Source: an uncultured Chlamydiales bacterium (GTDB taxonomy: Bacteria; Chlamydiota; Chlamydiia; Chlamydiales; JAAKFR01). From it: a stretch of 64,000 nt of DNA. The notes under the pieces are model-generated. The model was not told the DNA's origin. It ran no database searches and saw nothing but the letters and a program-made list of their open reading frames with translations. Of the stretch, positions 59,683 to 60,138 are shown in pieces (the first letter of the stretch is position 1; each line of letters starts with the position of its first letter). The stretch lies in assembly GCA_963699155.1 (NCBI GenBank), contig OY969414.1, positions 907,757-971,756 of the forward strand. The letters run 5' to 3'. Both the position numbers and the translations under genes were made by a program.

Positions 59683-60138
59683 TTATGAAAATTCAGCAGC
59701 GAGTCGCCTTGTAAGAGCTGCAAATTCCGAAGCACTGTTGGATAACCCTACTGTTTTCTTCTGAAGAGCAGCTAGCCCTCCTTTGCGATGAGTAGGCCGG
59801 TGGAGGGGCGTAGTGTCAGCACTATTCGCTGTGAGAAGAGGTGAAGTGTCGATGGTCTCAGTGGTGCGGGTAACACTTTCTTCGCACCAGGTCAATTTGG
59901 GGTGGTAGCGGTCGAGTAGGCCGAGGATTACGGCTAAGGCAACACCGCCGCCGCCGATGGCGAAGGCGCTATAGCCCAATCGCGAATAGAGACAGCCAGT
60001 CGCAATGAGGCTGCCGATCATGAGGATGATTCCGATCACTAGAAAAAGGTGGTGAGTTTCACACTTCTCTTCCGCAATTGGCTGCCGCGGAACAATGTGG
60101 TGAATGGGTACATCAGGCGAGCTATAGGAGCGTTCCAT
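59683..60138 (-). CDS. Inc-like membrane protein with C-terminal R-SNARE-like half motif
   Basis: Bilobed hydrophobic domain (LFLVIGIILMIGSLIATGCL / AFAIGGGGVALAVILGLL); C-terminal RKGGLAALQKKTVGLSNSASEFAALTRRL; aaagga RBS. Confidence 0.7.
   Translation of the reverse strand: MERSYSSPDVPIHHIVPRQPIAEEKCETHHLFLVIGIILMIGSLIATGCLYSRLGYSAFAIGGGGVALAVILGLLDRYHPKLTWCEESVTRTTETIDTSPLLTANSADTTPLHRPTHRKGGLAALQKKTVGLSNSASEFAALTRRLAAEFS

Follow-up and report, generated by a model that had tools for sequence, protein, structure and literature searches.

Does a small Inc-like protein of an environmental chlamydia end in the C-terminal half of an R-SNARE motif, and could such a tail act on the SNAREs of a host cell? 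The question is raised by a gene on the minus strand of a 64,000-nucleotide stretch of DNA from an uncultured Chlamydiales bacterium (positions 907,757 to 971,756 of contig OY969414.1, assembly GCA_963699155.1; the whole stretch is referred to as the window). SNARE mimicry by Incs is already known. For the 151-residue product of this gene, here called P0001, an earlier note made from the DNA sequence alone had proposed an Inc-like protein whose last residues match an R-SNARE from the zero-layer Arg onwards. We give a probability of roughly 0.5 to the reading that P0001 is an Inc-type protein whose tail binds host Q-SNAREs and acts as a non-fusogenic decoy or tether. Support for the tail comes through other chlamydial proteins and is, on the sequence comparisons given below, moderate. 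The parts of the gene and its product are as follows.

59683..60138, minus strand: gene of the Inc-like protein P0001 (151 residues) including the stop codon, from the listing of open reading frames (ORFs) and the translation
60049..60138, minus strand: N-terminal 30 residues, rich in Ser, Pro and His and without signal peptide, from the sequence
59911..60048, minus strand: bilobed hydrophobic domain with transmembrane helix 1 (TM1, residues 31-52), the loop SRLG (53-56) and TM2 (57-76), from the sequence, AlphaFold2 (AF2) and hydropathy
59788..59910, minus strand: linker, residues 77-117 (41 residues) with 10 Thr and 4 Pro, predicted to be disordered, from the sequence and AF2
59686..59787, minus strand: C-terminal tail, residues 118-151, from Pfam Synaptobrevin, hhalign, a position-specific scoring matrix (PSSM) and shuffle controls

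Register and layers of the tail

The C-terminal string quoted in the earlier note is present letter by letter at P0001 residues 118-146, and the ungapped alignment from the zero-layer Arg that it had described is exactly the register found by hhalign, which places R118-L146 on residues 41-69 of an alignment of VAMP3-like proteins (hereafter the VAMP3 alignment) with Arg on the zero-layer Arg. With R118 as zero layer, layers +1 to +8 are occupied by L122, L125, T129, L132, A136, F139, T143 and L146. Hereby, seven of the nine layers (0 and +1 to +8) are identical to the consensus of the VAMP3 alignment and the remaining two are small-for-small replacements (T for A), and the alternation of bulky (+1, +2, +4, +6, +8) and small (+3, +5, +7) layers agrees with that consensus as well. 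The protein ends five residues past layer +8, with AAEFS.

The zero-layer Arg and the +1 to +8 layer pattern are thus what P0001 and the brevin-type R-SNAREs (PF00957) have in common; P0001 differs from them in having no N-terminal half of the motif and no adjoining C-terminal TM anchor, and its score lies far below the family cut-off. That the N-terminal half is missing, as the earlier note had stated, is borne out by the 24 residues before R118 (94-117), which hold four Pro and no heptad pattern; nothing there corresponds to it. P0001 hence lacks a complete SNARE motif (layers -7 to +8), its match covering only positions 27-59 of the Synaptobrevin profile, and no membrane anchor follows the motif directly on its C-terminal side, the anchor being the N-terminal hairpin.

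A class of chlamydial half R-SNARE motifs

The evidence that carries the assignment of the tail comes from other Chlamydiota proteins, which were collected by a Pfam Synaptobrevin scan of 150 Chlamydiota genomes, inspection of the ORFs and hmmscan. Proteins with a half motif that runs from a zero-layer Arg to layer +8 score 12.6 to 40.2 bits on Synaptobrevin, and two of the class proteins, G176/P0054 and G016/P0053, lie above the Pfam cut-off of 26.4 bits:

G176 (P0054), 452 residues: 40.2 bits (E 3e-10, above the cut-off), three tandem copies, no hairpin
G016 (P0053), 137 residues: 29.9 bits (above the cut-off), an N-terminal half like that of brevins, followed by a C-terminal hairpin
G125: 18.3 bits, hairpin, Ser-rich linker, C-terminal motif
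G020 (P0041): 17.5 bits, motif, then a hydrophobic hairpin
G114: 16.8 bits, hairpin, Ser-rich linker, C-terminal motif
G081 (P0042): 15.0 bits, hairpin, Ser-rich linker, C-terminal motif
G005 (P0052): 12.6 bits, hairpin, Pro/Gln-rich linker, motif starting from the Arg directly after prolines, as in P0001

The half-motif matches lie at about positions 25-66 of the Synaptobrevin profile, and G016/P0053 matches best on the N-terminal half (2-31). The order of hairpin, linker and C-terminal motif seen in P0001 recurs in G125, G114, G081 and G005. Three members (G005, G016, G020) belong to family f1, which is that of the window's genome, and the others to family f19. In all six class motifs the Arg stands 21 residues before an invariant Phe; an alignment that includes P0001 (A1) shows the same residue in 6/6 sequences at four positions: R, A(+18), F(+21) and L(+28). 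When the six class motifs without P0001 are compared to the VAMP3 alignment by hhalign, they align Arg on Arg with P 6.5e-9 and a probability of 95.8%, and the subsets do so as well, the four f19 motifs with P 4.3e-8 and the two f1 members with P 1.8e-5. The f19 members run on into a Lys/Tyr/Trp-rich ending that resembles the juxtamembrane stretch of brevins. A scan of 401 genomes with a profile that includes P0001 yielded one further strong place (G176), the rest being partial matches of at most 20 bits. In the protein collection the class members are labelled 'hypothetical protein' or are unnamed.

Among the candidates that were discarded are two 132-residue frames in genus g35, which have no start codon, the long proteins of G156 and G167, which lack the layer pattern, and G073, G041, G029, G366 and G385, which give partial matches only.

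Some of the members and one further protein deserve separate description. P0054 (L034:442-1797 (-), G176:C1) is unnamed by its sources. P0053 (L017:1480-1890 (+), G016:C17) comes from the same chlamydial family as the window's genome; over its first 36 residues it is closely similar to the N-terminal half of VAMP3 from animals (hhalign P 1.1e-9), and beyond them lie an insert rich in Gly, a second half that has diverged, and two helices that form a hairpin at the C-terminus. P0041 (L020:793-1878 (+), G020:C3), a protein of 362 residues, consists of a Cys-rich zinc-finger-like stretch, the half motif and a Gly/Ala-rich hydrophobic hairpin, so that motif and anchor follow each other in the opposite order to P0001. 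P0057 (L022:267-1007 (+), G032:C7), a tail-anchored coiled-coil protein of 247 residues, matches nearly the whole Synaptobrevin profile (positions 7-86) at 15.7 bits and the VAMP3 alignment with P 1.6e-4 (hhalign); by these matches it may be another SNARE-like protein.

Membership of the P0001 tail

All class profiles used to judge the membership of P0001 were built without it. Hereby, an hmmsearch with the six motifs gives P0001 9.7 bits and places it first among the 4,541 ORFs of at least 100 residues of its genome (E 0.23), and it is the only match that spans most of the six-motif model. By hhalign, full-length P0001 aligns to the six motifs with P 3.6e-4 (score 22.9, residues 118-148 on columns 3-33, ungapped), the P0001 motif alone aligns to the four f19 motifs with P 1.4e-5 (columns 3-34 on 3-34), and against G081 alone it reaches P 7.1e-5 at 34% identity. 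Leave-one-out values for accepted members are P 9.1e-5 for G005 and P 2.6e-3 for G020, and the P0001 motif does as well or better. None of 700 ORFs taken from the 4,541 reaches the score of 22.9, their maximum being 16.5; a Gumbel fit to this null puts the P0001 score at about 5e-5 for a single ORF, which amounts to roughly 0.2 over the genome. Two controls, a release factor (P 0.088) and a coiled-coil ORF (P 0.45), do not match the class profile.

A full-length, ungapped PSSM that extends from the Arg to +30 was scanned over all six frames of the genome. The P0001 tail scores 21.2 bits, the best of 1,611,801 positions, and the next two reach 13.3 and 12.7 bits. A crude hydropathy scan finds the Inc-like build in 111 proteins among 2,152 crude genes, a number which probably overestimates the true Incs; within this set P0001 (21.2 bits) is followed by one protein at 10.3 bits and all others lie below 0. 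The P0001 score is reached by 0/200,000 full shuffles and 14/200,000 layer-preserving shuffles of the 31 residues.

Since the class was found without P0001, it is fair to restrict the expectation to Inc-like tails, for which it amounts to roughly 0.003-0.04. A Synaptobrevin-like protein is present in 3/22 other genomes of the family to which the window's genome belongs. With this frequency weighed in, the sequence comparisons make it rather likely that the P0001 tail truly belongs to the class and is a real R-SNARE-type half motif; P0001 is the weakest and least certain of the members.

Chance resemblance and other explanations

Several results weigh against a SNARE-type tail, among them the direct comparisons with R-SNAREs. 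Synaptobrevin (PF00957) is the sole Pfam family with a match to P0001 at E ≤ 10, and no Q-SNARE family is among the matches; residues 116-148 align to profile positions 27-59 with 11.3 bits (E 0.32), compared to the cut-off of 26.4. In the whole-genome Synaptobrevin scan P0001 was not listed, since it failed the first-look filter, and a generic coiled-coil ORF was listed instead at 11.5 bits. Sub-threshold Synaptobrevin matches occur in 12/14 control prokaryote genomes and in 110/150 Chlamydiota genomes, and the N-terminal helix of release factors scores 14-18 bits, so that matches of this kind can be spurious. (The release-factor matches comprise L024, at G115:C3:151226-151342, and about ten similar ORFs of 361-388 residues; some of these ORFs contain the in-frame stop of a programmed frameshift.)

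Other programs and libraries give the same picture. BLASTP of P0001 against a VAMP3-like protein yields no alignment at E ≤ 100, phmmer against PDB finds no SNARE for either the whole protein or the tail alone, only NPRL3/hydrolase noise or nothing, a search of the ESM Atlas with residues 112-151 returns no usable match, and NCBIfam holds nothing for P0001. In hhalign against the VAMP3 alignment of 120 VAMP3-like proteins P0001 obtains P 0.079 and a probability of 0.7%, compared to P 0.053 for a release factor, 0.15 for the coiled-coil ORF, and 0.027 and 0.069 for motif-less relatives. A hidden Markov model (HMM) of 120 vertebrate VAMP3-like proteins gives P0001 -1.8 bits, a model that is too narrow, as the class members G081 and G176 also stay below 6 bits. 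By sequence comparison, the direct similarity of the P0001 tail to R-SNAREs is at noise level.

The tail is also without relatives of its own kind. No relative or ortholog that carries it was found, a word-indexed search of 5.8 billion proteins returned only P0001 itself, and in five relatives the place downstream of htrA holds unrelated ORFs or nothing, with no ortholog of P0001; conservation of the tail can therefore not be shown. Thus, of the half R-SNARE that the earlier note had claimed, the register and the layers stand and the score against R-SNARE profiles does not, being at the level of generic helices. The note had named two checks itself, an R-SNARE HMM score above that of generic amphipathic helices and conservation of the tail in orthologs; the first gives 11.3 bits for P0001 compared to 11.5 for the coiled-coil ORF, and for the second, no ortholog or relative carries the tail. 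With P0001 taken alone, the claim fails by these sequence-based standards.

Gly-Gly at +2/+3 and Gly at +13 of the tail disfavour a helix, and because of the Gly-Gly pair, folding may begin only from layer +1 or +2. In the AF2 model the tail is helical only at residues 133-149, with a predicted local distance difference test (pLDDT) score of about 50-56.

The link to the class has weak sides of its own. Among 28,864 six-frame ORFs of at least 40 residues P0001 ranks fourth in the hmmsearch with the six motifs (E 1.5), and when two weaker G176 repeats are added to the profile it ranks second of the 4,541 ORFs (E 0.72). Nine layer residues contribute 23.0 bits to the PSSM score and the other 22 positions -1.8 bits; the PSSM window and its anchor were chosen after sight of the alignment in the earlier note, and extrapolation of the PSSM tail gives a genome-wide E of about 0.2 for the P0001 score. 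The genome-wide significance of the link between P0001 and the class, as judged from these searches, is marginal.

One rival explanation for these findings would be chance: a fast-evolving, lineage-specific Inc tail in which an Arg is followed by the heptad pattern L-L-T-L-A-F-T-L, unrelated to SNAREs. We regard this as unlikely, although not strongly so. In its favour, every direct comparison with R-SNAREs is at or below the level of the controls, the link to the class has a genome-wide E of just 0.2-1.5, no second copy of the tail was found, the PSSM score rests on nine residues, sub-threshold Synaptobrevin matches are common in prokaryotes even in housekeeping release factors, and the tail was picked by eye from a very large scan, a procedure that favours lucky look-alikes. 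Chance accounts less readily for a single best full-length match in the genome with a margin of 8 bits, obtained with a profile built without P0001, and for the fact that this match sits in one of about 111 Inc-like proteins and not just anywhere. Moreover, the ungapped register is identical in every comparison, shuffles that preserve the layers reach the score in just 14/200,000 cases, and the same build is seen in four other chlamydial proteins with a better Synaptobrevin match.

Distinctly improbable, finally, is a terminal helix that is functional and yet no SNARE mimic, serving Inc-Inc self-association, another host partner or amphipathic membrane anchoring, with the class being a chlamydia-specific interaction motif superficially like R-SNAREs: the tail is indeed closer to the class than to VAMP3 itself, G005 and P0001 lack the Lys/Tyr/Trp juxtamembrane-like ending of the f19 members, coiled-coil Inc tails are generally known to homo- or hetero-oligomerise often, and self-interaction of IncA is cited in PMC2265411, but the class profile aligns to VAMP3 Arg-on-Arg with P 6.5e-9, two members pass the Pfam Synaptobrevin cut-off, and a bulky/small alternation of layers that fits the VAMP3 consensus is not expected of a generic leucine zipper.

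An Inc-type scaffold with interchangeable tails

The Inc-like nature of P0001, also put forward in the earlier note, is well supported by its bilobed domain, by paralogs in the same genome and by relatives found only in chlamydial genomes, and the bilobed hydrophobic domain and the Thr/Pro-rich linker described there are both present in the sequence. According to the structural definition in PMC3048545, an Inc carries a pair of TM helices, each 15-32 residues long, with a loop of 3-22 residues in between, and the P0001 hairpin agrees with this. A hydropathy scan with a block criterion of 38-80 residues finds a single hydrophobic block at residues 25-77. AF2, run without an alignment, gave a mean pLDDT of 59, with helices at residues 24-54 and 58-94 (block pLDDT 72-82) and no secondary structure at 95-132 (pLDDT mostly below 50). 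By analogy with the family definition (PMC3048545), residues 1-30 are the presumed type III secretion signal region.

Among relatives, the hairpin domain is the only part of P0001 that is conserved. P0001 has matches at E ≤ 1 in 15/41 related genomes, its own included (14/40 others); the matches with E < 0.01 are all confined to the region around the hairpin, and two at noise level (E 0.18 and 0.28) touch the tail. In a representative library of 1.84 billion proteins, 40 proteins including the query are found at E ≤ 0.001, with their best stretches all within residues 10-126, and the labels of the related proteins in the source records are chlamydial. The tails of 13 inspected hairpin relatives are unrelated to one another and to that of P0001, so that the hairpin serves as a scaffold for different tails. 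At least three hairpin paralogs exist in the same genome, all with long unrelated C-terminal parts, one being 66% identical over residues 29-79. The P0001 hairpin hence belongs to a lineage-specific paralog family with unrelated, interchangeable tails.

Two of the paralogs, of 480 residues (G000:C1:1721178-1722617 (+)) and 539 residues (826793-828409 (+)), lie outside the window and have a long C-terminal domain in common with each other and with P0026; judged from their sequences, one or more large tail types are conserved within the scaffold family. The closest hairpin relative in the same genus, P0010 (L002:1378-1926 (+), G002:C1), is 46% identical and carries an acidic tail rich in Ser, Thr and Glu that ends in a short charged coil. 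To the eye this coil looked VAMP-like; hmmscan gives no Synaptobrevin match for it.

Gene and surroundings

The coding span of P0001 (59686-60138, minus strand) starts with ATG, which is preceded 8 nucleotides upstream by AAAGGA, and the stop codon lies at 59683-59685. Because 39 relatives of the hairpin domain are found at E ≤ 0.001 in the representative library, P0001 is a real gene. The genome around the window is a single contig of 2.40 Mb, and its relatives are chlamydial. Neighbours of the gene are three tandem OMP_b-brl paralogs, an M50 peptidase with TPR, HtrA and an M20 peptidase. Features close to the gene are:

60208..60236, minus strand: weak promoter-like site upstream of the P0001 gene (1 in the region compared to 0.8 expected in shuffles)
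59637..59652, minus strand: weak terminator-like hairpin 30 nucleotides past the P0001 stop (1 compared to 0.9 expected in shuffles)
57277-59592, plus strand: three tandem OMP_b-brl (outer-membrane beta-barrel) paralogs, 52-64 bits
60314-61753, minus strand: HtrA, neighbour of P0001

The promoter-like and terminator-like sites occur at chance frequency and are suggestive by their placement only. Among sequencing runs, none of RNA was listed as containing the sequence, and one DNA run contained a small share of its words. In the window, the interval between the M50 peptidase gene and htrA is filled by the three OMP_b-brl genes and the Inc-like gene; two relatives of another genus have only a 130-residue ORF there, and the content differs in each relative of the same genus. 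The interval is a variable spot.

Relation to known SNARE mimics

Of the known Incs, IncE (CT116) of Chlamydia trachomatis is among the closest comparisons. It binds syntaxins 7 and 12 via a 6-residue mimic of R-SNARE layers -1/0 (PMC12108946). Like P0001 it is a small bilobed-hairpin Inc with a short cytosolic C-terminal tail that partly copies the R-SNARE motif, and, although no full SNARE, it binds Q-SNAREs of the host (STX7, STX12) (PMC12108946). The two copies differ, however. That of IncE consists of 6 residues directly after TM2 and, in the account given by PMC12108946, has a zero-layer residue other than Arg, whereas that of P0001 is about 30 residues long, spans layers 0 to +8 and lies at the very end of the protein, beyond a linker of 40 residues. 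A VLE-x-x-G-like hexapeptide of the IncE type, as delimited in PMC12108946, is absent from P0001, which reads DRYHPK after TM2 and HRPTH before R118.

IncA binds host VAMPs via Q-type SNARE-like motifs (PMC2265411). IncA and CT813 (PMC2265411, PMC2756591, PMC6588587) are like P0001 in their N-terminal hairpin anchor, and their cytosolic coils mimic SNARE motifs and engage host SNAREs. For SNARE-like motifs of this kind an inhibitory effect on fusion is reported. The motifs of IncA are full-length and Q-type, with Gln in the zero layer; their binding partners are R-SNAREs of the host, and they drive homotypic fusion. The P0001 motif is R-type and half-length; it should therefore bind Q-SNAREs and could not form a full bundle alone.

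Legionellales and giant viruses are known to carry complete SNAREs (10.1101/810531, PMC9546365). Those of Legionellales, which are intracellular bacteria, are related to eukaryotic SNAREs; R-SNAREs and proteins with tandem R-SNARE motifs are among them, and in a few cases a TM hairpin comes after the motif (10.1101/810531, PMC9546365); the tandem motifs recall the tandem half motifs of G176, and the post-motif hairpin recalls G016 and G020. Each of their motifs is complete, at least 40 residues long and found with E < 1e-4, mostly in type IV effectors anchored by CAAX (10.1101/810531, PMC9546365), whereas P0001 has a half motif below any family threshold and is anchored on the N-terminal side. 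As the published screens applied E < 1e-4 and a minimum length of 40 residues for bacterial motifs, a half motif of 35 residues cannot pass them (10.1101/810531, PMC9546365). The word 'Chlamydia' is absent from the main text of the preprint 10.1101/810531, and in the available part of PMC9546365 Chlamydiae appear with NSF-like proteins only. Beyond the work on IncE, no paper on R-SNARE- or Synaptobrevin-like motifs in chlamydial proteins was found, and the supplements of 10.1101/810531 may list such proteins.

Proposed mode of action and implications

By SNARE mechanics, the C-terminal half of an R-SNARE can, when free, take up the membrane-proximal groove of an acceptor complex of Qa, Qb and Qc; the free C-terminal half of VAMP2 (the 'Vc peptide', a soluble fragment used in vitro) is known to bind the membrane-proximal half of t-SNAREs. 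If the P0001 tail is a decoy or tether for host Q-SNAREs, the protein would be a substrate of type III secretion that sits in the vacuole membrane and exposes both its ends to the host cytosol. The tail would dock in the membrane-proximal half of the Q-SNARE acceptor bundle of the (amoebal) host and replace the host R-SNARE there. With the anchor on the zero-layer (N-terminal) side of the motif and some 40 floppy residues in between, no force would be exerted on the membranes, and the complex would therefore be non-fusogenic. Such a complex could tether Q-SNARE-bearing vesicles to the vacuole; alternatively, the tail could clamp host t-SNAREs in a half-occupied state and keep the host R-SNARE from finishing. 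In this way fusion, e.g. with endolysosomes, would be blocked or redirected.

The half motif is seen again in a small number of other chlamydial lineages and hence is probably a reusable module, which either derives from a VAMP gene of a host or arose as a mimic of one. A wider reading, to which we give less than even odds and which is put forward tentatively, is that several lineages of Chlamydiae have repeatedly built effectors on layers 0 to +8 of a brevin-type R-SNARE, be it as tails of hairpin Incs (P0001, G005, G081, G114, G125), before a C-terminal hairpin (G020) or as soluble tandem arrays (G176). These effectors would clamp or pre-structure t-SNAREs in a half-zippered state and so select the fusion partners of the vacuole, and the module would stem from host VAMP genes and have been shuffled between Inc scaffolds.

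Vacuolar bacteria are known to mimic SNAREs in three ways: by full coils of the Q type (IncA), by complete SNAREs that were captured (Legionellales) and by a single R-type motif of 6 residues (IncE). An R-SNARE half that spans exactly layers 0 to +8 and is anchored from the 'wrong' end would, if true, be a different device, which occupies the part of the acceptor that drives final zippering and is itself unable to fuse anything. It would also provide a natural reagent to arrest SNARE assembly half-way, and a direct and cheap test would be possible with a 35-residue peptide against sets of Q-SNAREs. Better first targets than P0001 are the related proteins, two of which lie above the Pfam Synaptobrevin threshold. 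The class as a whole would then represent natural counterparts of the 'C-terminal VAMP peptide' of the laboratory, and the targeting of SNAREs would reach to environmental chlamydiae and their amoebal hosts.

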